Source: an uncultured virus (IMG/VR IMGVR_UViG_3300042908_000623) (taxonomy: Duplodnaviria; Heunggongvirae; Uroviricota; Caudoviricetes). Taken from it: a stretch of 20,000 nt of DNA. The stretch is from the IMG/VR virus record IMGVR_UViG_3300042908_000623. The stretch is one strand, 5' to 3'. Positions 2,409 to 17,565 of this stretch are shown piece after piece (position 1 is the first letter of the stretch; the number at the start of each line of letters is the position of its first letter). The notes beneath the pieces are model-generated. The model had not been told where the DNA came from. It searched no databases and was given only the letters and a program-made list of their open reading frames with translations. Both the position numbers and the translations under genes were made by a program.

Positions 2409-3619
2409 CAGTATGCCGTCCCCATGTTGCCACGTTGCAAACACTCCCACGCCAGCGCACGCGCGATTACCGTGTCGTCGTGGCCACCCTCCGGGGCAGA
2501 GTAGCTCACACGGCCAGTCGTGCTATTTACGCGCGATTCGTACGATAACAGCTCGACGCGCCCCACTGGGTCAGGCAGGAAATGACACTCTTCCCGCTCG
2601 AGGCACAAGGCCAGTGATTGGATGAGCGGCGGCTTGCTGCTGCCCGTCGTCTCAAAGCCCCTGACGCTCATCCCCTCACGCTGCAAAGCCTCGAGGTTCG
2701 GCGAGCCGATACTGTTGCTCTCAACGATTGTTGATGCCACGATCCAGCGGTCAGCGATGGCCCGAAGACGCGCCCTCTGGAATGCCCACTCAATCTTGTT
2801 AAACCTGTCCAGCTCGACTTCCTGCCGGCACGTACCGCAGATCACGCTGATCACCGTGAAGTCATTCTTTTGCCCCCAATCGACACCGGCAAATAGCTGA
2901 TGGCCTGCATGGTGGCCAGTGTCAGCGCGAAGGCAAGCATCAATGTTGCGAAACACCGCGCCGGAGTTCTGCAGAAACTCGGCCAGATACTCCTGCCGGA
3001 AGATCTGCTCTGGTAGCTCCTGCCGTGCTGCTTCGATCTCTGATGGTTTGATATGGGGATTGTCGAGAGTCGGACTGTGCCACGCTGCCCAGTCTGGTTG
3101 TGTGCCGTCTACGCCTCGAGAATAGCACTCGTGAAAAAAGTTGATCCCCTTCGGAGTGCTTAAAAAGAATGCGTCGCCCTCGTAGTCAGTCAGTGTCGGC
3201 CGAATCGCAGCTTGCCATGCATCGCCCAGGTTCGGCACCATCGCGGCCTCGTCCACAATCACGCGCGCATATTTTCGACCACGCACAGAGTCAGCCGCAT
3301 CGAGAGACCAGCAATCAATGACACCGCCGGTGATCAGCTCGATGCGATGCTCCTGCTTGGCAACGCGCGTCTGCAGCTGCTTTGTCGTCTCAATGATCTC
3401 TTTCCAGACTTCACCAAGCATTTTGTACGTCGGCGAGAACCAACCGACTGGATAGCCATCAAGGGCTTTATCGATGATTAAATCGATGCCCAGCGTCGTC
3501 TTGCCAAACCTGCGCCCACACGCCAGCACGTTGAAGCGTCGCGCTTCGTCGATAATCCGTTGCTGTGCCGGATGCAGAGAGGGCAGCACCAACTCGATTG
3601 TCTTACTTGCGGTCTGCAC
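2408..3619 (-). CDS. terL: Terminase large subunit
   Basis: LHPAQQ Q-motif, Walker A CGRRFGKT, Walker B VIVDEAA, motif III FLSTPKG, FRQEYLAEF, nuclease GVDWG...DFT and HDDTVIARALA. Confidence 0.96.
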   Translation of the reverse strand: MQTASKTIELVLPSLHPAQQRIIDEARRFNVLACGRRFGKTTLGIDLIIDKALDGYPVGWFSPTYKMLGEVWKEIIETTKQLQTRVAKQEHRIELITGGVIDCWSLDAADSVRGRKYARVIVDEAAMVPNLGDAWQAAIRPTLTDYEGDAFFLSTPKGINFFHECYSRGVDGTQPDWAAWHSPTLDNPHIKPSEIEAARQELPEQIFRQEYLAEFLQNSGAVFRNIDACLRADTGHHAGHQLFAGVDWGQKNDFTVISVICGTCRQEVELDRFNKIEWAFQRARLRAIADRWIVASTIVESNSIGSPNLEALQREGMSVRGFETTGSSKPPLIQSLALCLEREECHFLPDPVGRVELLSYESRVNSTTGRVSYSAPEGGHDDTVIARALAWECLQRGNMGTAY

Positions 3620-4001
3620 GTCTGATGATCACCTCGACGGTTCCGGAGTGGCTCTGGTCGGCGCGTTCGATGTATCCGCGCTCCTGACCAATCGTCTTCA
3701 GGGTGAAGCATACCGCCCAGCCTTGCTTCTCACGCACAGCCGACAGGAGCGCGTTCTCGGCCTCGTCCAGCATTGTTTGCCGGGAGTCGTCGAGGATTTG
3801 CTTCAATTCGGGATTTGCGTTGACGTGCGCGTGAATGACGTTGCGTGAGATACCAAGCGATCGAGCAGCGTGTGAGATGTTGCCGTTTGACTCTTCGAGA
3901 GCTTGCTTCAGCTTCTCATCGTTTACACGTGGTGTTGATGGCCGCATCGGGGATTGACGCTTGGCCTTCGATTTCGTTGTAGCCTTCTTCTTTGTTGTCA
4001 T
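3603..4001 (-). CDS. terS: Terminase small subunit (Fis-like HTH)
   Basis: Overlaps the terL start; HTH QALEESNGNISHAARSLGISRNVI; C-terminal WAVCFTLKTIGQERGYIER...SHSGTVEV typical of TerS. Confidence 0.8.
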   Translation of the reverse strand: MTTKKKATTKSKAKRQSPMRPSTPRVNDEKLKQALEESNGNISHAARSLGISRNVIHAHVNANPELKQILDDSRQTMLDEAENALLSAVREKQGWAVCFTLKTIGQERGYIERADQSHSGTVEVIIRRADRK

Positions 4002-4006
4002 ACTTG

Positions 4007-4228
4007 TTATTTATCGATGATCTTGTCGATCTTGTCCTCGATGCGGTCAAGCCTTGCCTGTATGCCGCTCAACTCTTTGTCAAAAGCGCGAGTCGTGACA
4101 AGGTGACGCATCTCTTGCCGGATCTCGTCAACCTCTTTCCGCGATGGAGTGAAGAACGACTTGAGCAGCCACCCACCCATCAGCGCAATGATGCTTGATA
4201 CTGTTACATCTACGTACTCTTTCTCCAT
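4007..4228 (-). CDS. Single-TM plus coiled-coil membrane protein (lysis-associated, holin/XhlA-like)
   Basis: MEKEYVDVTVSSIIALMGGWLLKSFF hydrophobic segment, then IQARLDRIEDKIDKII. Start at 4228 is my choice; the ORF is open to 4288. Confidence 0.6.
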   Translation of the reverse strand: MEKEYVDVTVSSIIALMGGWLLKSFFTPSRKEVDEIRQEMRHLVTTRAFDKELSGIQARLDRIEDKIDKIIDK

Positions 4229-4283
4229 CGGTGTCACTTTCTCGGGGATCATTTTTGGCCTTTGTTGGTGGGGTGTCTGGTCT

Positions 4284-4347
4284 CGCATCTCCCCGGCGCG
4301 AGGCTCTACGCCTGCGAGTAGACACCCCGTATGCCGGGGATATCGCG
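4284..4347 (-). other. Long imperfect intergenic hairpin
   Basis: Minus-strand nested stems UCCCCGGC/GCCGGGGA, CGGGGU/GCCUCG and UCUAC/GUAGA; no U-tract. Confidence 0.55.
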
Positions 4348-4348
4348 G

Positions 4349-4528
4349 TTACTGTTTCAGCCTGGCTATTAGGTCGTTGAGATTTGCGTCATTGATGGCC
4401 GTCTGCTGTTCGGCCTCATCGAGCAGCTCGACGCACGAAAGGCCACGACGCGCGCCCTCTCTGAGCAACTCTTTGATCGCCAGCAGGATAAATTCGTTGA
4501 TGATTGACGGCAGTGAAATGAAGTTCAT
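4349..4528 (-). CDS. Hypothetical protein (59 aa, not in ORF track)
   Basis: MNFISLPSIINEFILLAIKELLREGARRGLSCVELLDEAEQQTAINDANLNDLIARLKQ*; ATGA overlap with the upstream stop, G-rich RBS. Confidence 0.65.
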   Translation of the reverse strand: MNFISLPSIINEFILLAIKELLREGARRGLSCVELLDEAEQQTAINDANLNDLIARLKQ

Positions 4529-4998
4529 TTGCCCCCCTGCGTGTTGTTTTTGCTGTTCACGAACGAAGCAAGCAACTTAAACGTGTCTGACAAGTCGGTG
4601 ACAAACACAACCCACTTCTGTCGCTCAGTGTCGGGCAGAGCAGCGACGCGCGGATCGGTGAGTAGTCCAGTGGTCAGCGTGGTTGCCGTGCCAATCAGCG
4701 CGACATATTTTGACTTGGCATCTTCCGGCAGGGCAAGCGACCCATCCGGCTGGATGTACTGCTTTGATTCAACGATGAGCTGCTGATTGATTGCGTTCAG
4801 CTTGAGCAGCGTTTCGGCGATGGCCAAGCCACTCTCTTTGCTTATCCGGCCTGCCGCAGTCTGACGATCGATTATCTGTGTGCCGGTGTCGATGTATCCG
4901 GCAATTCTGGATGTCGTCTTCGCCAGCTCTTTGCCCTTGTCGCATCCCGCGCCGGCCAAGCACAGCCCCAAGATGGCAGTTAGGAGGAGTGTTCGCAT
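4525..4998 (-). CDS. Lipoprotein (lysis module, possibly spanin-related)
   Basis: Signal peptide with lipobox MRTLLLTAILGLCLAGAG-C; RBS GGAGGTG; translationally coupled to the holin-like gene. Confidence 0.75.
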   Translation of the reverse strand: MRTLLLTAILGLCLAGAGCDKGKELAKTTSRIAGYIDTGTQIIDRQTAAGRISKESGLAIAETLLKLNAINQQLIVESKQYIQPDGSLALPEDAKSKYVALIGTATTLTTGLLTDPRVAALPDTERQKWVVFVTDLSDTFKLLASFVNSKNNTQGGK

Positions 4999-5299: not shown

Positions 5300-5328
5300 A
5301 CACTATCAGCCGAATAACTTTTTTGCAA
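5300..5328 (-). promoter_or_regulatory. Putative sigma70-type late promoter
   Basis: TTGCAA-17 nt-TAGTGT immediately after the thyX stop codon. Confidence 0.5.
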
Positions 5329-5329
5329 T

Positions 5330-6067
5330 TCACGCGCTTTCGCTGTTTTCAATATCGATGATGCCACTGTGCCACAACTCGCGGCGATTATAGGCAAGGT
5401 CAGCATCGACACTCTGCGCCAGTCGATAGATCTGATAGGTCAGCGGGAATTGCGTGGCAAAGATCATCTCCATTGCGTTTGCGTACGTCCGCATCTCGCC
5501 CTGCGCGTCGGGAGCGGTGCGAAGGCGAAGGAAATTCATCAGTGATCGGAGATTGAACTGCGCGTAAAGCTCAGTTTCGGTGCATTGCGGCAATATCGTC
5601 CGCGCCTGCTCTCTGCTCACTCCCATTTCGAGCAGTCGCGTGTAGGCGCGTGTGGCCTCGGTGATAGCGTCAATAAATAGACTGATCGCCGATACCTGGT
5701 CGTCGATCGGCCCCCCGGATACTTGGCGATTGCTATCACCCTGCTTGCGCCACGTGTGGGGACGGTGAAACGTCAATGTCATCTCCACGTACCGCCCGGA
5801 TCGCTGGGAATACGAAGCCATCCGGTGACGCTGCATTTGTGCCACCAAATACAGTGGCATCCGCAGCCGGTAGACGATGCCTGCCAGCTCGAGGGGGGAT
5901 CCGTGGTCGTTTTCGATCAGCGTCCTTAGCAATCGCCGATCTTTGAGCCTGCCCTTATTTTCTGATCCCGTGGAGACTCGGGCACGTCGGGCGATGTCCT
6001 CATCGCTGCCCCACCGCTCTTCGAGTTCCACGCTGCCATATGTTTTGATTTCCGTGTCCTGATCCAT
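5330..6067 (-). CDS. thyX: FAD-dependent thymidylate synthase
   Basis: ThyX signature RHRx7SxR (RHRMASYSQRSGRY), plus ARVS, HGSPLE, REQARTILP, NLRSLMNFLRLR, AQGEMR; RBS GGAGG. Confidence 0.95.
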   Translation of the reverse strand: MDQDTEIKTYGSVELEERWGSDEDIARRARVSTGSENKGRLKDRRLLRTLIENDHGSPLELAGIVYRLRMPLYLVAQMQRHRMASYSQRSGRYVEMTLTFHRPHTWRKQGDSNRQVSGGPIDDQVSAISLFIDAITEATRAYTRLLEMGVSREQARTILPQCTETELYAQFNLRSLMNFLRLRTAPDAQGEMRTYANAMEMIFATQFPLTYQIYRLAQSVDADLAYNRRELWHSGIIDIENSESA

Positions 6068-6085
6068 CTCGTCCTCCAGTTCTGT

Positions 6086-6886
6086 TTATGCAATTTCGTA
6101 ATAGTGCCGGGCTGGCCCCCGTGCCCCCGGCGCGCGCTCCTCGAGGGTCTGCTCGCGGATCGTCAGCACACCCTGCTCAACCAGCCTTGAGAGCCACACG
6201 AACACACGATCACGATCCTGATTGATAGCCTTTGCGATTGCATCAGCCTCGGTGTATCCCTGAGAGATCGTCTGCACAATTCGCTCCTGCACTGACTGTT
6301 CCGGCAATTCAAGGATGTAGCGCACTTCCTCGTTGGCGTAGCTGATCGCCGTGGCTGTCAGTGGCACGATTGCCGCCAGTGCGCTGCCTGCTGCCACGTA
6401 TGCGCCCCATAGGGTTGCCACGTGTGGATCGTGAGAGATCGCGGGAAGGGAAGCGTCGATGGCCGGTGCGGACTCCTCAGACACCAGCCGCCGAAGTTGG
6501 CGAGTCGTCAGGCTCTGCTCTGCCGCCTGTTCGATGAGCTGTTCTGCGTTCGGTGACGACGACGCCACAACAAAATGCGTGAACTCGAGGTTTTCCGGGC
6601 GGTCGGAGAATCTTGTGGCAAGTTGGTAGGCCCGTCGATATTCGTAAACTCGCTGATAGTGGCAACCCACCGAAGCAGCAAACTCTTGGATCGCCCCTTC
6701 CCCGTAATGCGTGACGATCGAGGCGCAGATCGCTGCCTGTTGCCACCGCCGCTCTGTGACTTCCCTCTCTGCGTCATACCACGCTTGCACATGGTCTTCC
6801 CACGCTGAGTGAGTAAAAACGGGCAAGTTCTGGTCGATCAACGCAAAACCTGCCACGATGAGCTTGTTTGATATTGATTCGGCCAT
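6086..6886 (-). CDS. Putative DNA-binding protein: LmbU/ParB-HTH-like N-terminal region plus C-terminal winged helix
   Basis: WQQAAI...HYGEGAIQEFAASVGCHYQRVYEYRRAY...ENLEFTHF...LTTRQLRRLV resembles LmbU-type HTH proteins; ADAIAKAINQDRDRVFVWLSRLVEQGVL...RGPARHYY is a wHTH pattern. Start ATG 6886 chosen. Confidence 0.6.
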   Translation of the reverse strand: MAESISNKLIVAGFALIDQNLPVFTHSAWEDHVQAWYDAEREVTERRWQQAAICASIVTHYGEGAIQEFAASVGCHYQRVYEYRRAYQLATRFSDRPENLEFTHFVVASSSPNAEQLIEQAAEQSLTTRQLRRLVSEESAPAIDASLPAISHDPHVATLWGAYVAAGSALAAIVPLTATAISYANEEVRYILELPEQSVQERIVQTISQGYTEADAIAKAINQDRDRVFVWLSRLVEQGVLTIREQTLEERAPGARGPARHYYEIA

Positions 6887-6888
6887 AT

Positions 6889-7152
6889 TTACGCCACCGC
6901 CGCTGCCACGTGTGGCATTCCATTTTTGATCTGTTGCCACGCAGTTGGGTCAGCTTGTGACACCCGGATGATCGACTCAATGAGTGGCCTGATTCTGTCG
7001 CAGTCGTCGTCATAGGCCAGCTGCCGGATCTCGTAGAGTGCCCCAGGTATCTCCCACGTGTGGGAAATTGGCCCGTATGGTTCGCGTTTGTCGAGGCGGT
7101 TACTGGCCGCCTGCTTGCCACTGCTCGATGATTGCTTTTTTGAAACTGTCAT
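6889..7152 (-). CDS. Hypothetical protein (87 aa)
   Basis: ATG 7152 with RBS GGAGGGG; MTVSKKQSSS...MPHVAAAVA*. Confidence 0.65.
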   Translation of the reverse strand: MTVSKKQSSSSGKQAASNRLDKREPYGPISHTWEIPGALYEIRQLAYDDDCDRIRPLIESIIRVSQADPTAWQQIKNGMPHVAAAVA

Positions 7153-7651
7153 AATCCCCTCCATAAATTGCCTCAAATACTGGTAAGTGCAGCCGCTGCA
7201 GGTAAATCGCTTTGCGGTGACTGCTGCCATCGTCGCGTCTCTCGCTCCACCTTAGCCGAATTGCCACGGTGTTTTTACTGGCCGTGACGTGATCAATGGT
7301 AAGCCTCGCATCGTCCGGAGGCAAGGCTATTGCCACAGACTCATCTTGTTGACTGGTAAGCGGTTCCGGTTCAGTGGCAACGCTTGCCACGTACTCGTTG
7401 CCACCTGTGGCAAGATCCACTCCGCCACGTGTGGCAGTCACTGCACCATCAGTCGCTGAATGATCAGAGCCATCAGCCCGATCGCTACGACTATCAATGT
7501 GAGTCGCGCTTGCGGATCCCACCCGTATTTGTCCTGCCGCATCGTTACCTCCCACGTGTGGCAGATCCTGACCAACGTACTGGTCAGGATTGCCACTGAA
7601 TGACGTCGCTTCGTGCGCCCCGCCTACTCGGTCGGGGCTGAGTCTTTTGGG
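7100..7651 (-). CDS. -1 frame extension of the 7624-8457 membrane protein (predicted 452-aa fusion)
   Basis: The -1 frame has a TGA directly before the slippery heptamer and is then open for 181 further codons (RLSPDRVGG...IRLRWSERRDDGSSHRKAIYLQRL...QAGGQ*). I saw no RBS-linked start of its own. Confidence 0.7.
   Translation of the reverse strand, partial: PKRLSPDRVGGAHEATSFSGNPDQYVGQDLPHVGGNDAAGQIRVGSASATHIDSRSDRADGSDHSATDGAVTATRGGVDLATGGNEYVASVATEPEPLTSQQDESVAIALPPDDARLTIDHVTASKNTVAIRLRWSERRDDGSSHRKAIYLQRLHLPVFEAIYGGDYDSFKKAIIEQWQAGGQ
7438..7542 (-). CDS. Overlapping 34-aa single-TM peptide
   Basis: GGGAGGTAACG-ATG; MRQDKYGWDPQARLTLIVVAIGLMALIIQRLMVQ*. Confidence 0.4.
   Translation of the reverse strand: MRQDKYGWDPQARLTLIVVAIGLMALIIQRLMVQ
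7558..7596 (-). other. Strong hairpin with UACG tetraloop
   Basis: GUGGCAAUCCUGACCAG-UACG-UUGGUCAGGAUCUGCCAC. Confidence 0.7.
7617..7651 (-). promoter_or_regulatory. Programmed -1 ribosomal frameshift signal
   Basis: In-frame X XXY YYZ heptamer C CCA AAA (7651-7645), 6-nt spacer GACUCA, stem GCCCCG/CGGGGC enclosing the 0-frame UAG. Confidence 0.75.
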
Positions 7652-8457
7652 TCAGTGGCAATTGGTGACATTCCAATGCGTTTTGCCACAGGCGCAAGTG
7701 TGGCAGTCCTGCCGATCGACTGGAATAGCTCCTGACGCACTTCCGGATCGGTGATGTTGTTGATTGCCGTTAAACCACGCTGCTTGACGCGCGCAAATTC
7801 CTCGACCGCTTGAACGTATTTTTCCTCGAGAATGACTTTGCGCTTGAAGTGTTCGAGCTTTTCATTCTCAACCAGTGCCTGTGATTCAAGGGCGAGGCTC
7901 TCGGTCATCAGGTGCGCCCGATCCTGCTCAATCGCCATCACAGCGTTGGCTCTCGCCTCATTGATTGCGGTTGACCAGTGGGCATAGTGCAGCACACAAA
8001 CGGCAAAAACCATCGCTCCGAAGAGCAGAGGAAATGCCACGTATTTTGAGTAATTGTAGATGGGTTCAGCGATCGACGGCCCGACTTCTGACAACTGGTA
8101 GAGAGCGGCGCAGCCGTGGACAAACGAAAGCACGGTGAATGAGATTGCGAAGATCCGCAGCCACCGCTGATGATTGCCTGCTGATTTGTTTTGATTGTTC
8201 CAGAAATAGATGGCGCACGCCTCAAAAAGCAGTGCCACGCAACCGAGAGCCACGCCCCACACTCCAGGGATGTGGGAGTAGAAGAGATGAAAGTTGAGGC
8301 TGGCAAGAATTGCAAACACCGCATATTTCACCACGGCCAAGAATCCGCCAGTGCCGGCAAGGTCAAATTTGCCAGCCTCCTCACGCAGCTTCTTTGCGTT
8401 ATTGCCATTGCGCGATTCCTGATTCATCGCATCCCCAAAATTGAAAAGATTGCCCAT
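7624..8457 (-). CDS. Four-TM membrane protein with C-terminal coiled coil
   Basis: RBS GGAGG; four hydrophobic segments (FLAVVKYAVFAILASLNFHLF, WGVALGCVALLFEACAIYFW, IFAISFTVLSFVHGCAALY, VAFPLLFGAMVFAVCVLHY), then a helical charged region. Confidence 0.85.
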   Translation of the reverse strand: MGNLFNFGDAMNQESRNGNNAKKLREEAGKFDLAGTGGFLAVVKYAVFAILASLNFHLFYSHIPGVWGVALGCVALLFEACAIYFWNNQNKSAGNHQRWLRIFAISFTVLSFVHGCAALYQLSEVGPSIAEPIYNYSKYVAFPLLFGAMVFAVCVLHYAHWSTAINEARANAVMAIEQDRAHLMTESLALESQALVENEKLEHFKRKVILEEKYVQAVEEFARVKQRGLTAINNITDPEVRQELFQSIGRTATLAPVAKRIGMSPIATDPKDSAPTE

Positions 8458-8483
8458 TTCGTCCTCCGTTAAACTGGTAAGAA

Positions 8484-9185
8484 TTACTTACAAGTTGATG
8501 TTGTGATTTTCTGCGCTTTTTTTGCAGCGTTTTTGCACGTTACTGAACAATATTTCTGCGGCGCGCGGTTTGCGTGTAGTCGGTACTTGCAGACGACTAC
8601 CCTTTCGCAGAGCTGACAGACGATCGTTGGACGCTCGAGCTTTGGCCGCCCTGCGCCATTGTCCGCAAATGCTCGAGGGTTCCAATCGTACACGCCAAAC
8701 GTGTAGGCATATTGGTTTCGCTCATCCGCAGCACGAGGGCCACGACTCTCGACTTCTTGCCAATTGCGCTGCCTCATATCAGGGAACTTGATGCGCCTTG
8801 TTCCTTTGATAGTCGTGTGTAGGCGCGTCAGGTACAGTCGTTCAGCGTAGGCCATTGCCAGCGCGTACACCTCAGCACCGCCGGCAACAAATAACTCTGT
8901 CTCCCCCTGCTCTCGCGCGTAGTCGATCGCGGAGGTAAGTGACAGCTTGGCGATCGCGCCGGATGCCTCAACCAGTTTGGTGTAGTGCTCCGTCAGGACG
9001 ATCAACGATCGCCCAGGTAGACCCTCAGCTGCCAACGATGCCCACGTCAGCCGCCCCATAATCACGTGATGGCCTTGGGTGAGTCGTGCAAATTCGCGCA
9101 GGTCATCGGCCTGCTTCCATGGCAGCTCGCCATTCTGGCCGATAGTACCAACCTCGTCCATGGCAACGATAATGGAGACCCTCAT
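8484..9185 (-). CDS. folA: Dihydrofolate reductase with C-terminal Cys4 zinc-finger extension
   Basis: IIVAMDEVGTIGQNGELPW..ADDLREF, VIMGRLTW.SL, LPGR..IVLT, FVAGGAEVY, LYLTRL; tail CQLC...KYCSVTCK. RBS GGAGG before ATG 9185. Confidence 0.9.
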   Translation of the reverse strand: MRVSIIVAMDEVGTIGQNGELPWKQADDLREFARLTQGHHVIMGRLTWASLAAEGLPGRSLIVLTEHYTKLVEASGAIAKLSLTSAIDYAREQGETELFVAGGAEVYALAMAYAERLYLTRLHTTIKGTRRIKFPDMRQRNWQEVESRGPRAADERNQYAYTFGVYDWNPRAFADNGAGRPKLERPTIVCQLCERVVVCKYRLHANRAPQKYCSVTCKNAAKKAQKITTSTCK

Positions 9186-9595
9186 GAGATCCTCCAATTG
9201 TCGGCCAGGTAATCAACGAGCGTCTGCCGCGCAGCGTCGAAACCGTAGCAAACAGCGTGGCCGTAACCCTGCGAAATCAGCAGGTCGCGCCAGCGTCGCT
9301 GCTCTGGTGCAAGTGATCCGGACTCGGCCTTCATTTCGACGAATAATCCGTGGTATCCGCATCGAGCAACAGGCAACATCAGATCCGGGATGCCAGCTTT
9401 GACACCTTCGCGCTTCATCGCCACCGCCACCGAAGGCAGGCGATGCCCCCCGTTGGGGATCGCAAAAAGTAGGCCAAGCTCCGGCTGGTTTGGCTGCGCG
9501 AGTGTCGCCCACTGGATCAGCACGCTTTGCTCTTCGTGTTCGGACGGCACGAGGCGGCGCGTTCTGGTTGATGTTTTCCAGCGTCTATTTGTCAT
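9182..9595 (-). CDS. VRR-NUC domain endonuclease (Holliday junction resolvase-like)
   Basis: SEHEEQ, FAIPNGGHR, GVKAGIPDL, GLFVEMKAESGSLAPEQ: PD-(D/E)xK VRR-NUC motifs. Confidence 0.9.
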   Translation of the reverse strand: MTNRRWKTSTRTRRLVPSEHEEQSVLIQWATLAQPNQPELGLLFAIPNGGHRLPSVAVAMKREGVKAGIPDLMLPVARCGYHGLFVEMKAESGSLAPEQRRWRDLLISQGYGHAVCYGFDAARQTLVDYLADNWRIS

Positions 9596-9872
9596 ACATT
9601 CCACCCTCTCCAATGCGCTCGATCTCTTCATCAAGCAGCCAATGAGTGATGGCAATTCGTCGCCCCTCTTGGTCTACGCCCATCCACTCCCCGCAGGCCA
9701 AGCGATGGACGCGCCATTGGGACTGCTGAAAATGAAAATATCCCATCAGGCCTGCGCCGTTGCTGCGCTCTCTGATGGCCTCGACCGTGCCGCGATAGCA
9801 AAAGCGTGATCCGCTGGCCGTCGTGACCTGGATAATCTGGTTGTGTCGATAGGTTGATTGCTGTGGCCTCAT
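9585..9872 (-). CDS. Hypothetical protein (95 aa)
   Basis: ATG 9872 coupled to the upstream stop (TAATG), RBS GGAGGTGG. Confidence 0.6.
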   Translation of the reverse strand: MRPQQSTYRHNQIIQVTTASGSRFCYRGTVEAIRERSNGAGLMGYFHFQQSQWRVHRLACGEWMGVDQEGRRIAITHWLLDEEIERIGEGGMYDK

Positions 9873-10480
9873 TATCGTCCACCTCCCCGCAGGCAAAACG
9901 CACACCGGCATTTCGGCGATACGTCCGGACTCGTGGGAATCCATCGGCCGTAGGCGTCGCGATCCCATCCTTCTGATACTGGTGTAGCCCTGCGCTGATT
10001 AACTGGCGTGGCGGCGCACTGGCAAGCGTATACAGGGTAATGCCACTCGTTACCTGTCGGGCAATACGTAGCAATGCTGGCATATCCGGTGTCACCGCAA
10101 TATTTGCAACCAACGGTATCATCCATGTGGCGCGCTGAATACTGCGCCGTCTGCCGATGCTGGCGATCCTCGAGGATGAGTGCTTTGTATGCCGGAAGAA
10201 TGGCCATCACTGGAAATGACCTCGACCAGTCGTGGTCTTTCGTGGCACGTCGCCAAGCAGGGACAAGCAAATGATCCGGCACTTCGGCCAGAGCGTCGAG
10301 CCAGGTTGATACCGCCAACGTCAGCTCATCACCCGCCGAAAGCGGCAGGGAGCTTAAAGATCGAGTCTGCTGGATCAGGGCGATCATCGCCGCCTTCCTG
10401 TCCTGTGAGTTTTGCGATGAGATTGAAGGTCTCTCGAGCTGCGCGCTCGTTGTGCGATTCGCGTTTATGTCCATTTCCAT
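9872..10480 (-). CDS. Putative helicase loader/inhibitor-like protein with Zn-binding motifs
   Basis: Directly follows and overlaps the initiator; helical W...LAEVP..LL..AW.RA......FP pattern, CKYCGDTGY, CQC, CRCAFC. Start uncertain (10480, 10474 or 10387). Confidence 0.55.
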   Translation of the reverse strand: MEMDINANRTTSAQLERPSISSQNSQDRKAAMIALIQQTRSLSSLPLSAGDELTLAVSTWLDALAEVPDHLLVPAWRRATKDHDWSRSFPVMAILPAYKALILEDRQHRQTAQYSARHMDDTVGCKYCGDTGYASIATYCPTGNEWHYPVYACQCAATPVNQRRATPVSEGWDRDAYGRWIPTSPDVSPKCRCAFCLRGGGR

Positions 10481-11252
10481 TCTTTGCATTGGCCTGATAC
10501 TCCTTGTCTCTAATATCTTGAGTTTCGAAACGATTATACTTGTCAATCATCCCGTGAATGTTGTTGCGGCTGTGCTTGTGATCGCGCCATATCTGCATGA
10601 CCTGTCGCCATATGTGCAACTTGCTGATGTCTGCATTTGCAATCAGCTCCTGTTGCCAGATCCCCATTTGCGGAAAAAAGCTGACTGCAATTGATACAGC
10701 GTCCTCCTCCTGCAGTGTGTGCGGTCTGGCTGGTGTCGTCTCCTGCGAGATCACCAAAGCCTCACGCGCACTCACCCTCTCTGATGTAGTCTCTGTAGTA
10801 GTCTCTGTAGTAGTCTCTGCTAATAAGAATGTATGCCCATTTTGGGCTTGCTTGCTTGCACGTTTTGGGCTTTCTAGTATGTCCATTTCGGGCATACTGG
10901 CTTGACCGTTTTGGACATGCTGATCTGCCGTTAAAAGGCATTCAAGAATGTCCATATCGACTCGATAATAAAGCTTTGCGGGTACGCCACGCAGCTGCTC
11001 ACACCACAATGGTTTGCCCTCAAAGGTGATCTCACGCAGTCGACGACGAGCAGATTCTTGCTCTTTTCGACTCAGCATGGTCTCTTCAAACCATTCATCC
11101 TGAGTCTTCCAAAACCATCCCTGCGGATCTTTCGTCTTCCCCGTCCAGTACACGGCCTGACTGAGCATCAATCCAGATGTCACGGATCCGGCCAGCTCTG
11201 CAAGGCATCGATGGAAGGCAATTGGACTTCCAAGAATTTTAGTCAGCTTCAA
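10329..11252 (-). CDS. Phage replication initiator (replisome organizer, lambda-O-like)
   Basis: N-terminal wHTH PIAFHR...LMLSQAVYW...GWFWKTQDEWFEETMLSRKEQESARRRL...RGVPAKLYYRVD; ETTT linker; internal iterons; TTG start after GGAGG. Confidence 0.85.
   Translation of the reverse strand: MKLTKILGSPIAFHRCLAELAGSVTSGLMLSQAVYWTGKTKDPQGWFWKTQDEWFEETMLSRKEQESARRRLREITFEGKPLWCEQLRGVPAKLYYRVDMDILECLLTADQHVQNGQASMPEMDILESPKRASKQAQNGHTFLLAETTTETTTETTSERVSAREALVISQETTPARPHTLQEEDAVSIAVSFFPQMGIWQQELIANADISKLHIWRQVMQIWRDHKHSRNNIHGMIDKYNRFETQDIRDKEYQANAKNGNGHKRESHNERAARETFNLIAKLTGQEGGDDRPDPADSIFKLPAAFGG
10830..10921. repeat. Four tandem 23-bp quasi-palindromic iterons (probable replication origin)
   Basis: TGTATGCCCATTTTGGGCTTGCT / TGCTTGCACGTTTTGGGCTTTCT / AGTATGTCCATTTCGGGCATACT / GGCTTGACCGTTTTGGACATGCT. 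Confidence 0.8.
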
Positions 11253-11261
11253 GTAACCTCC

Positions 11262-11416
11262 AAACAAAAAGCCCTTTGAGAAAACGGGCAGGTGGGAAAC
11301 TGGTGATAGGTTGACGGCCTATCGGTTGCCTGACCCGCCTTCTCAAAAGGCTCATTGATGTTGATATTGCCCAGTTTCCCATGTGGCCTCCGTTGCCGGG
11401 CGTCACCCCAGCGGCC
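11262..11416 (-). ncRNA. Structured leader RNA of the replication operon (C4/CI-like architecture)
   Basis: 83-nt nested hairpin 11270-11352 (AGCCUUUUGAGAA/UUCUCAAAGGGCU; GAUAGG/CCUAUC) followed by UUUUGUUU and the RBS; upstream UGGGAAACUGG is complementary to internal CCAGUUUCCCA. Confidence 0.55.
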
Positions 11417-11733: not shown

Positions 11734-12012
11734 TTAGGGTTCGTTAGTTCCCTCGGGCTGCGGGTGAGCGTCCGTTGCCGGTGTCTCTGCGATGTCTGCG
11801 GCTTTGGCTGATCGCAACGCACCCGGACGCGCCGTGGTGTCACGAGCTGTCAGCACAGCCTGCCGGGCAAATAGATATAGTGGGCGACGCTGACCGCCGC
11901 GCAGGACATGCACAGCCGTCAGGTGTCCGGCCTTCAGCCAGACCAATATGTTCTGGCGGGTCGTCCCTGCCAGCTCAGCCGCCTGCGATGATGTCATCAG
12001 TTCGTCGTTCAT
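11734..12012 (-). CDS. Excisionase/MerR-type HTH DNA-binding protein (Cro-position regulator)
   Basis: LMTSSQAAELAGTTRQNILVWLKAGHLTA...RRPLYLF (HTH_17 pattern); probably leaderless from ATG 12012. Confidence 0.75.
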   Translation of the reverse strand: MNDELMTSSQAAELAGTTRQNILVWLKAGHLTAVHVLRGGQRRPLYLFARQAVLTARDTTARPGALRSAKAADIAETPATDAHPQPEGTNEP

Positions 12013-12019
12013 CGCTGCC

Positions 12020-12048
12020 ATCCTACATGTAGATGTCCAATGTGTCAA
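12020..12048 (-). promoter_or_regulatory. Leftward sigma70 promoter
   Basis: TTGACA-17 nt-TAGGAT, with ATG 7 nt downstream. Confidence 0.75.
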
Positions 12049-12115
12049 TAGGAAAATTAGAACAAGGCGGAAAGGCTTACGGTAAATCTTTTTTTAAGGT
12101 ACAGCTATTTTCTTA

Positions 12116-12144
12116 TTGACAACTAAGGTGACTCGGCATATAGT
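12116..12144 (+). promoter_or_regulatory. Rightward early sigma70 promoter 1
   Basis: TTGACA-17 nt-TATAGT with an AT-rich upstream element. Confidence 0.85.
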
Positions 12145-16597: not shown

Positions 16598-16942
16598 ATG
16601 ATTGACGCAACAGATTTCACTCAATACGCGCAGTGTCGCCTTATCCTTGAGGCATTGACTCGCGCTGGCAACCGGCAATCGCAGACTGCACAGGACGCAT
16701 TGGTCGCCAACCGGGATGCCGAGCTTGCCAAATACTACGCACTCCTTGATGCCGTAAATCAGGCGCAGATGGAGTGTGATCGCGCACTGCTGGCGATTGC
16801 GCGCGCGATCTTGGCCAGTGAGAATCCTGGTGACGTCGTAGTGGACACGCTGGATGCAATCAGCATGTACAGTCACGCATATATAGCGTTGGCTCCTGAC
16901 ATCGTGACCGAGCTGACCGCTATTGCACAGGAGGCGCGATGA
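16598..16942 (+). CDS. Hypothetical helical protein (114 aa)
   Basis: RBS AAGGA after hairpin GGGGAGG-GCAA-CCTCCCC; ATGA coupling to dcd. Confidence 0.7.
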   Translation: MIDATDFTQYAQCRLILEALTRAGNRQSQTAQDALVANRDAELAKYYALLDAVNQAQMECDRALLAIARAILASENPGDVVVDTLDAISMYSHAYIALAPDIVTELTAIAQEAR

Positions 16943-17565
16943 TCCGCAGTGACAATTGGTGGCATCAGCACGGGCCACAGATCCTCAACGTTTTCCACGC
17001 TGGTCAGGTGCGGGAAGCTCATAGGCCTGATTATACGCATGGTATTAGTCGGCCTTGTCCGGTCGAGGCAAGGCGCGTCATCAGCTATGGCACGTCGTCA
17101 GCAGGATATGACCTGTCGCTGAGCGTGGCAGGTCTGCAGCTGTTTACGGCTGTTGAGAACGTGGTCATTGACCCAAAGCGTTTTGATGATCAATGTTTGA
17201 CGTCGTTAGAAGTAAAGCACGACAATAAATCTAATGCCTACTACACACTGCCGGCGCACTCGTACGCGCTGGGCGTAAGCCACGAGCGCATCACGATGCC
17301 TGATGATCATCTCGGGCTCGTGATTGGCAAGTCAACTTATGCGCGGTGCGGACTCATCCTCAACACGACACCACTTGAACCCGGCTGGACGGGCCAGCTT
17401 GTGCTTGAGCTGTCCAACGCCACGCCTCTACCGATGCGCGTATATGCGCACGAGGGCATCGGCCAGCTGGTGATGATTGCACTCGACGAGCGTCCTGCTG
17501 TCACGTACGGTGACCGGCAGGGCAAATACCAAGATCAGCGCGGCATTGTGACCGCGCGTGCATAG
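16939..17565 (+). CDS. dcd: dCTP deaminase
   Basis: ISYGTSSAGYDL, IDPKRFD, GKSTYARCG, TPLEPGWTGQLVLELSN, YAHEGIGQL, YGDRQGKYQDQRGI. Confidence 0.95.
   Translation: MIRSDNWWHQHGPQILNVFHAGQVREAHRPDYTHGISRPCPVEARRVISYGTSSAGYDLSLSVAGLQLFTAVENVVIDPKRFDDQCLTSLEVKHDNKSNAYYTLPAHSYALGVSHERITMPDDHLGLVIGKSTYARCGLILNTTPLEPGWTGQLVLELSNATPLPMRVYAHEGIGQLVMIALDERPAVTYGDRQGKYQDQRGIVTARA

Follow-up and report, generated by a model that had tools for sequence, protein, structure and literature searches.

A phage four-helix membrane-protein gene with a predicted -1 frameshift, nested peptide genes and localised palindromes: a candidate DNA-tethering cassette

The DNA considered here is a 20 kb stretch of an uncultured virus of the Caudoviricetes (IMG/VR record IMGVR_UViG_3300042908_000623), and the whole of that stretch is called the window below. 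The subject is a compact cassette on its minus strand (6086-8457), lying between the genes for DHFR and ThyX. A preliminary description of this interval had listed a protein with four transmembrane (TM) helices and a coiled coil, a frameshift extension of that protein, an overlapping TM peptide, an 87-aa protein, a helix-turn-helix (HTH) protein and a local array of DNA motifs. Each of these elements was found, all of them on the minus strand. For comparison, 40 loci were gathered from viral, genome and metagenome collections, and these are cited by L numbers. Many of them are near-duplicates, and sequence counts therefore overstate the independent lineages, of which there are about 14. Two viral contigs match the cassette at 92% and 88% identity, and a blastn search of 5300-9700 against 50,697 phage records returned nothing matching.

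The 4-TM gene and its frameshift signal

The first gene of the cassette (7624-8457, minus strand) encodes a 277-aa protein ending at a TAG stop codon, referred to as the 4-TM protein or short form. Its AlphaFold2 (AF2) model has a predicted local distance difference test score (pLDDT) of 78.9 and places four helices at 39-62, 66-89, 94-122 and 126-159, then one long helix of 70 residues at 161-233; the tail from residue 251 falls below a pLDDT of 50. By the positive-inside rule, both ends of the four-helix bundle would be cytoplasmic. Variable sites were counted by codon position 1/2/3 among four close relatives, and for this gene they fall 16/6/68. The family amounts to 42 clusters at 90% identity, nearly all without a name, of which 40 span 246-303 aa; to these are added a 166-aa fragment and one member of 287 aa. 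Searches of Pfam, PHROGs, NCBIfam and PADLOC gave no meaningful family for the 4-TM, extension, 87-aa or peptide proteins. At E≤0.1, PADLOC listed 0 families for the 4-TM protein, the extension of the window, the 87-aa protein and the peptide, while the HTH protein and the extension of L033 drew nothing better than chance-level rows (E 0.015-0.025). A search of the ESM Atlas found only clusters without a name. The best Foldseek match of the 4-TM model to the PDB was Orai (E 0.046, TM-score 0.21), and kinship was rejected, as a common outline of four TM helices and a long helix is not evidence. Separately, the 4-TM gene of L008 (4992-5830) is broken into two frames in the middle of the gene, which is a frameshift mutation or a sequencing error; the programmed site described next is intact there and separate from the break.

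Near its 3′ end, the gene carries the slippery heptamer C_CCA_AAA in frame (Pro270-Lys271; 7651-7645 on the minus strand), 18 nucleotides (nt) ahead of the TAG, and the -1 frame opens exactly at that point. The 3′ end of the 4-TM gene is readable in 34 sequences, namely the window and 33 loci; L003 and L007 were left out as duplicates, L014 and L035-L037 because they have no 3′ end of the gene, and L013 was also excluded. An in-phase heptamer lies 0-21 nt before the stop codon in 32 of the 34, in the form C_CCA_AAA in 28 and G_GGA_AAA in 4, and the relatives that keep it range from 42 to 100% amino acid identity to the 4-TM protein. The residue encoded ahead of the heptamer varies (Asp, Asn, Gly, Ser or Gln). 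Elsewhere in the 4-TM genes, CCA serves for 17 of 97 prolines and AAA for 53 of 139 lysines. The chance of finding C+CCA+AAA for x-Pro-Lys is then 0.025 per lineage, and it was observed at 13 of 13 non-redundant loci.

The heptamer is followed, 6 nt on, by a GC-rich hairpin, GCCCCG...CGGGGC (7617-7638, minus strand), which contains the TAG stop. In 18 non-redundant sequences, whose folds were read by eye, the minimum-energy fold has its strongest stem beginning about 5-7 nt past the heptamer. The stems themselves are unrelated across lineages (GCCCCG/CGGGGC, CCCCCG/CGGGGG, GCCTCG/CGAGGC, CCCCTCCG/CGGAGGGG, CGCCGTTAA/TTAACGGCG and CGCCACTGAG/CTCAGTGGCG), and one compensatory pair occurs within the wider clade of the window. 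The fold of 7535-7655 has a z of -4.1, and none of 200 shuffles was as stable. That segment also includes a second long hairpin (7558-7596, minus strand), directly ahead of the Shine-Dalgarno sequence of the TM peptide, of which the loop is variable and the stem kept in L001 and L002. It sits past the frameshift hairpin as an inverted repeat of 16-17 bp with GTGGCA/TGCCAC half-sites as its outer arms, and it may serve RNA stability, ribosome pausing, or as another DNA site.

In every complete case, the -1 frame stays open for 127-245 codons. Dinucleotide shuffles stayed open as long in 0-47 of 1000 trials over 14 lineages, with 3 or fewer in 13 of the 14 and 3 for the window itself. The +1 frame is open for 13-349 nt only. 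A relative with the two parts fused in a single frame was found neither among the 42 clusters, the longest being 303 aa, nor in a search of longer proteins.

The canonical features of a -1 frameshift, an in-phase heptamer, a structure 5-9 nt downstream and an open, coding-like -1 frame, were thus all found, and we consider a programmed -1 frameshift very probable here. The heptamer, hairpin and -1 frame of the relatives bear out, as far as sequence can carry it, the earlier proposal that one gene makes short and long membrane subunits. Readthrough of the stop codon into the TM peptide was rejected because the stop is TAG, TGA or TAA depending on the lineage, and transcriptional slippage is unlikely on a run of only four A. 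The predicted mechanism is recoding of the classical -1 kind in a gene that is new for it. Since it is kept down to 42% identity and the heptamer type switches between lineages, it makes a clean new case of recoding.

The extension, the nested peptide genes and the palindromes

The extension is a frame of 183 codons (7100-7651, minus strand), open from stop to stop and with homologues in the relatives, and its fusion to the 4-TM protein gives a predicted long form of about 452 aa. The first part of the extension is a fast-evolving linker of low complexity, about 115 aa in the window and probably disordered, and the second an end domain of about 50-66 aa. On -1 frame codon positions, the variable sites fall 7/7/15 in the part of the linker past the peptide gene and 4/3/16 in the end domain, counted there over 7153-7300. 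This C-terminal domain, 66 aa in the window (7103-7300, minus strand), is modelled by AF2 as three strands and then helices (pLDDT 81.5). Its consensus is PGHEWR..GWxLFxR...GKRxSxRKYLRWYTxxAIERIY, of which the window has the variant ...VAIRLRWSERRDDGSSHRKAIYLQRL..FEAIYGG. It had no match in Pfam, NCBIfam or PADLOC, and a search of PDB sequences with its profile gave chance rows only. The C-domain is conserved in all lineages, including L039 and L040, in which the heptamer is not canonical. One extension-type ORF (open reading frame), the 370-aa protein P0202, carries the end domain twice, close to either terminus, with an LVTS-rich linker in between.

Inside the linker-coding part, in the zero frame, lies the gene for a 34-aa peptide with a single TM segment (7438-7542, minus strand), introduced by GGGAGG-N6-ATG; its substitutions in L001 and L002 are conservative. 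The overlapping TM peptide of the preliminary description is not peculiar to the window, as 14 of 20 sequences have one or two hydrophobic zero-frame ORFs of 21-52 aa within the linker-coding DNA, measured from the first ATG, GTG or TTG, and a Shine-Dalgarno-like GGAG or GGAGG precedes most of them. There is no such ORF of at least 20 aa in L004, L010, L023, L033 and L034, and L031 is borderline. Where peptide and linker overlap, the variable sites in the clade of the window fall 7/6/6, and this lack of codon-position bias is as expected if two frames are used. The peptides are in the frame of the terminating ribosomes, so ribosomes that have not shifted presumably re-initiate on them, and those that have shifted read across.

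The same DNA carries short palindromes. The sequence CACACGTGG occurs 6 times, with 0.21 copies expected, and 6 was reached in none of 200 shuffles. The core CCAC-NN-GTGG occurs 7 times in the window, and all 7 copies are confined to 1.8 kb (5750-7561). Beginning at the upstream end, the first site (7552-7561, core CCAC-AC-GTGG) abuts the Shine-Dalgarno sequence of the peptide gene. It is followed by TGCCAC-AC-GTGGCG (7425-7434) and, 24 bp from that, by TTGCCAC-AG-GTGGCAA (7401-7410). The fourth site is inside the 87-aa gene (7054-7063), the fifth, TGCCAC-AC-GTGGCA (6906-6915), lies 20 nt before the start of the HTH gene, and the last two are inside the HTH gene (6418-6427) and thyX (5750-5759).

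The palindrome changes with the lineage. The window form is TGCCAC-AC/AG-GTGGCA; L004, L010, L015, L016, L022 and L023 have TGCCAC-TA-GTGGCA, with -TG- and -AT- variants; L027 has CGCCAC-TA-GTGGCG; L029 and L031 have AGTCAC-TA-GTGACT; L033 and L038 have CTGAG-CA-CTCAG; and L034 has CTTTAG-TA-CTAAAG. Each locus has 2-7 copies. The 10-bp core proper to a lineage is found, in 13 of 14 lineages, almost entirely in the extension or within 1.5 kb downstream of it. Over 14 loci of 2-20 kb each, only 4 copies of the own core were found elsewhere, and the cores of other lineages gave 2 stray copies. Neighbouring sites recurrently stand 24-25 or 36-37 bp apart. The odd repeats in the linker proteins (VPLVAQ/H, CATSGT, AEHSA and LVTSD, and also PHVA and HTW) turn out to be these palindromes translated in different frames, and the repeat is therefore a feature of the DNA and not of the peptide. 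The motif array of the preliminary description thus holds in the window and in its relatives. A role at the level of RNA was set aside: the 6 exact copies in the window all have the central AC in the same orientation, but the lineage with CTGAG-CA-CTCAG shows both. Judged by sequence comparison, then, the locus has as its firm features a frameshift signal, a -1 frame that evolves as translated sequence, peptide genes embedded there, and palindromes that are both localised and particular to each lineage.

Accessory proteins and genomic setting

The 87-aa protein (6889-7152, minus strand; GGAGGGG-N4-ATG) shares about 50 nt with the end of the extension, and its variable sites fall 5/2/21. Homologues occur only in L008 and L021, adjoining the cassette, their place being taken by different small proteins in other lineages. 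The HTH gene (6086-6886, minus strand) has variable sites distributed 12/4/102, and its product has 210 relatives at E≤1e-3. Profile comparisons divide the protein into a DUF1016_N-like N-domain and a winged-helix-like C-domain. The N-domain likeness is weak, being present in 8 of 23 homologues with a best E of 5.1e-6; this domain recurs in other proteins in fusions with DNA methyltransferases (MT-A70, Dam and N6_N4). The winged helix that had been read in the C-domain is weakly supported by profile, with all matches below threshold (TrmB at E 0.0044, below the cut-off, and ArsR/MarR chains at E 0.007-0.03), and a PDB sequence search with the HTH protein alone gave no match. As to the ParB-like and LmbU-like labels, neither family appeared at E≤0.1 or among the 25 families listed for 22 homologues, which for LmbU presumes that Pfam has a model of it.

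Nor is the HTH gene a constant member of the cassette. Of the lineages with sequence reaching far enough downstream, 5 have it (the clade of the window, L004, L015, L022 and L027) and 6 do not (L008, L021, L023, L031, L033 and L034). The co-occurrence that had been suggested as a check on the system therefore holds in part: the 4-TM gene, the slippery site and the local motif mostly go together, but the HTH gene accompanies them in about half of the lineages and L021/L008 has no obvious array. The claim that the cassette has no ATPase stands, no cassette ORF having a match to an ATPase family. ParA, ParM and TubZ were likewise absent from 18 minus-strand ORFs of the window searched against Pfam and PHROGs, and from 19 more searched against PHROGs only.

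In order of minus-strand transcription, the window encodes a RepO-like initiator (10329-11267), a VRR-NUC nuclease (9182-9655), DHFR (8484-9197; Pfam DHFR_1, E 6.7e-39), the cassette, ThyX (5330-6067; Thy1, E 9e-47), small membrane or lipoprotein-like ORFs, TerS, TerL and portal. The relatives show two contexts. In one set, the cassette lies between replication genes (RepO-like, DnaB-like) and HTH, ThyX or endolysin genes; in the other, it is directly behind an integrase (L021, L031 and L034). In L033, the 4-TM gene begins 46 nt past a tRNA-Phe gene beside a dus gene, at a prophage edge. This host-like dihydrouridine synthase gene and the tRNA-Phe gene (3468-4838) are directly upstream of the 4-TM gene, and the cassette is therefore the outermost gene of the integrated element there.

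Several other features of the window were recorded. The RepO-like gene contains three or four iteron-like repeats of 23 bp at 10831-10921 and one more near 10937, besides a tandem array of three 12-bp units (10778-10819). The stretch that holds them (10778-10959) is the part of the window with the lowest GC content and is probably a lambda-type origin inside the initiator gene. Since the iterons are there, the palindromes of the cassette are probably not an origin of replication, and we consider that role unlikely. The DHFR ORF is 237 aa long and the Pfam domain stops at residue 170; its last 65 aa or so (8484-8690) have a CxxC...C...CxxC pattern resembling a small zinc ribbon, which looks like an unusual fusion. 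A dCTP deaminase (16939-17565) completes, with DHFR and ThyX, a full set for dTMP supply. Inverted repeats of 15 nt, TGTCAATAGGAAAAT and ATTTTCTTATTGACA, lie at 12043-12121, in the region from which a MerR/Xis-like gene (11734-12048, minus strand) and a plus-strand ORF of 182 aa diverge, and this is probably an early control region.

A possible DNA tether, its rivals and known systems

The reading we favour is that of a membrane complex in two forms that holds the phage's own DNA. Most ribosomes would end at the TAG and yield the 277-aa short form, presumably re-initiating on the 34-aa TM peptide in the same frame. Some would slip by -1 on C_CCA_AAA, aided by the hairpin 6 nt on, and would then cross the peptide gene. 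Slippage would add the variable linker of about 115 aa and the three-strand/helix domain of about 66 aa, and so produce the long form of about 452 aa. If both ends of the bundle are cytoplasmic, the terminal domain would hang in the cytoplasm on a long leash. The C-domain, paired through the coiled coil, might bind the palindromes of 12-16 bp in the DNA of its own linker and in the next 1-2 kb or so, and that binding would keep this part of the phage DNA at the inner membrane. The 87-aa and HTH proteins would be lineage-specific accessories, with the palindromes perhaps doubling as operators for the latter.

From these parts we infer that the C-domain binds DNA, that an oligomer forms and that the complex acts as a tether. 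Among the protein elements, the C-domain alone is common to all lineages with palindromes, which makes it, by elimination, the better candidate for the DNA binder. We regard binding of the palindromes by this domain as a serious possibility that stops just short of probable. The whole chain, with a two-form complex, a long form bound to palindromes beside its own gene and the DNA at the membrane, is put forward tentatively. An anchoring, segregation or spreading role, as first proposed for the cassette, is conjectural. We would also entertain, with some doubt, a system free of any ATPase, in which the frameshift fixes the proportion of subunits that merely anchor to those that catch DNA, and decides whether the micro-peptide is translated, and the domain reads lineage-specific palindromes in the DNA of its own leash. 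If that were true, the gene would serve as message and recoding switch, as carrier of nested genes and as docking site, all together.

Several observations weigh against this proposal. Fold searches with the C-domain gave a best Foldseek E of 0.2 and a best VIA Z of 3.8, and by residue count by hand the domain of the window is not net basic. The idea of an integrase arm-type (AP2-like) domain found no support: hhalign against the N-termini of 3 neighbouring integrases, a small template alignment, gave a probability of about 1%, there was no match to Pfam Arm-DNA-bind, and the arm-type domain was not among the fold-search rows. The L021/L008 lineage, which has the C-domain closest to that of the window, has the frameshift and no repeated palindrome. 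Two sites of the window, just before and inside the HTH gene, could equally be operators of the HTH protein. The relatives are uncultured contigs throughout. The two most distant of them, L039 and L040 (26-29% identity), have no canonical heptamer, though the -1 ORF and its conserved end domain are retained; a different shift site or a different route of expression may be in use there. At the stop, L039 (975-1406) and L040 (around 2267-2330) have GGACTGACC in common. Finally, in the L015, L016, L020 and L027 clades the stop codon of the 4-TM gene overlaps a potential -1 frame start, ATG or GTG (as ATGA or GTGA), and some free extension protein could come there from coupling and not from slippage.

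Those overlaps are one ground for an account with no frameshift, in which the -1 ORF is an ordinary downstream gene, expressed from an internal start or by stop-start coupling, and the heptamer is kept for the Pro-Lys peptide. Gene callers do treat the extension as a protein in its own right, at lengths of 132-370 aa, and the Asp-Pro-Lys tail is conserved as peptide. However, in most lineages, the window included, the junction has no start codon, and the -1 frame of the window has no ATG and no convincing Shine-Dalgarno sequence before its GTGs. The conservation is at the nucleotide level, in codons that are a minority elsewhere and after a residue that varies; in each lineage the -1 frame is already open at the heptamer; and a canonically spaced hairpin with stems differing between lineages is hard to explain otherwise. 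We find this account very improbable. Still less credence goes to lysis machinery, in which the two isoforms would be a large holin/antiholin pair with embedded small membrane genes in the manner of Rz/Rz1. Such isoforms are predicted and such nested genes present, and L004 and L027 have an endolysin 2-3 kb downstream, but there it is flanked by other membrane proteins. No lysis gene was recognised in the available sequence of the integrase-side relatives, the cassette being beside integrase or att in L021, L031, L033 and L034. The embedded-peptide translations that were read have no lipobox, no PHROG or Pfam lysis family was matched, and palindrome arrays have no place in lysis.

The remaining rivals differ in what the palindromes are for. 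A membrane-bound regulator like ToxR or CadC would use them as operators or roadblocks for the 87-aa, HTH, thyX and late genes, with the frameshift setting its dose. There are sites just ahead of the peptide gene, of the C-domain and, by 20 nt, of the HTH start; L015, L016 and L022 have one or two just upstream of the HTH gene; and in one set of relatives the cassette stands between replication and lysis or late genes. The majority of sites nevertheless lie in coding DNA in the middle of an operon, and 4 to 7 of them over 0.4-1.9 kb are unlike a simple operator. Between 5900 and 8700 a single sigma-70-like match turned up, on the opposite strand, where 1.1 would be expected, and in other relatives the cassette is beside the integrase and att region and not the late genes. 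We judge such a regulator unlikely, and distinctly so the possibility that the palindromes serve the HTH protein or the small lineage-specific proteins, with the added domain recruiting some other partner, a host or phage protein, to the membrane. The HTH protein is a credible DNA binder, having two domains of DNA-binding type and an N-domain fused elsewhere to methyltransferases; each lineage has its own small protein past the extension; and the C-domain has no match to a DNA-binding fold. Yet arrays occur without the HTH gene in L023, L029, L031, L033, L034 and L038. The lineages have a common site architecture (arms of 5-7 bp and a 2-bp centre, often CAC-TA-GTG), yet their small downstream proteins have no detectable similarity across lineage groups, and it is the C-domain that is homologous throughout. 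Another possibility, which we hold to be quite improbable, is exclusion or defence by a prophage, the leash domain catching related incoming DNA at the membrane and blocking it. The outermost position of the 4-TM gene in the L033 prophage is typical of genes expressed in a lysogen, the gene is behind the integrase in L021, L031 and L034, and the parts of the literature consulted describe complexes at the membrane that target incoming DNA (Kiwa, and a nuclease bound to the membrane). However, no PADLOC model was matched at E≤0.01, and the genome of the binder keeps the sites in a linker that is free to vary, from which purely harmful sites should vanish. Retention of the sites while the linker protein drifts indicates that the carrier benefits, which argues against a role in exclusion alone.

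The tethering complex, if it exists, would have partial parallels in several known systems. Its recoding signal resembles those of lambda G/GT, E. coli dnaX and copA in having an X_XXY_YYZ heptamer near the end of the zero-frame ORF with a stimulatory structure downstream, and in giving two products with a common N-terminal part in a ratio set by slippage. It differs in that the gene is an unrelated 4-TM gene in an early or accessory region and not a tail, polymerase or transporter gene, in that the last base of the heptamer is A and not G (copA uses C_CCA_AAG), and in that the -1 frame crosses one or two separately initiated zero-frame genes. Few programmed frameshifts are documented in phages outside the tail chaperones and capsid genes, and in the papers searched the phage frameshifts listed are almost wholly in tail and capsid genes. 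Within that literature (PMC5009743 and PMC10885494 among it) and four family libraries, we found no published description of the 4-TM family or of a frameshifted phage membrane or DNA-binding protein. As far as we could find, the combination of membrane anchor, frameshift, nested genes and lineage-specific sites beside the gene is new. It is unusual for one stretch of DNA to hold at once a trans-frame linker, micro-peptide genes for the membrane in another frame and palindrome arrays that change with the lineage. A practical rule for annotation is that 'hypothetical' ORFs of about 150-250 aa downstream of members of the 4-TM family are probably not free-standing genes.

The nesting recalls Rz/Rz1, likewise a small membrane gene wholly inside the frame of a longer membrane protein and in a different frame. 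Here the outer frame would be reached only through the frameshift, the inner TM peptides have no lipobox, and half of the contexts have no link to lysis genes. ToxR and CadC also put a membrane anchor and a cytoplasmic DNA-binding domain in one polypeptide that works while tethered, as the long form may. In ToxR the order is reversed, with an N-terminal DNA-binding domain, a single TM segment and a periplasmic sensor; the present family has no winged-helix domain of the OmpR type, and its isoform ratio would be set by recoding. A localised array of short palindromes near the genes of the presumed binder is likewise a property of ParB/parS. Unlike that system, there is no ParB family at E≤0.1, no ParA or ParM, and the arrays persist without the HTH gene.

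The parallels to SpdB2 and p16.7, drawn already in the preliminary description, are of architecture and not of homology. In Streptomyces, TraB with clt is a membrane-anchored DNA binder with short repeated sites in or next to its own gene, and SpdB2 is a four-TM protein. The present case is a phage and not a conjugative plasmid, has palindromes in place of direct 8-bp repeats, and has neither an FtsK-like ATPase nor a family match. The p16.7 protein of phi29 has one TM helix and a single form, and it binds DNA without sequence specificity. Its order of parts, an anchor, a coiled coil and a C-terminal nucleic-acid-binding part, with no ATPase, is the same as the one proposed here, where the binding would be that of the C-domain. 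No similarity of sequence or fold between p16.7 and the present family was found. The p16.7 protein organises phage DNA replication at the membrane, holding the phage DNA there; PMC4974454 is among the papers that mention it. The present family adds a frameshift and specific sites by its own gene. If the long form does bind those sites, it would be a case of a virus placing its genome at the membrane with sequence specificity and no motor, and the phage chromosome would be tied to the membrane much as the old replicon model imagined.

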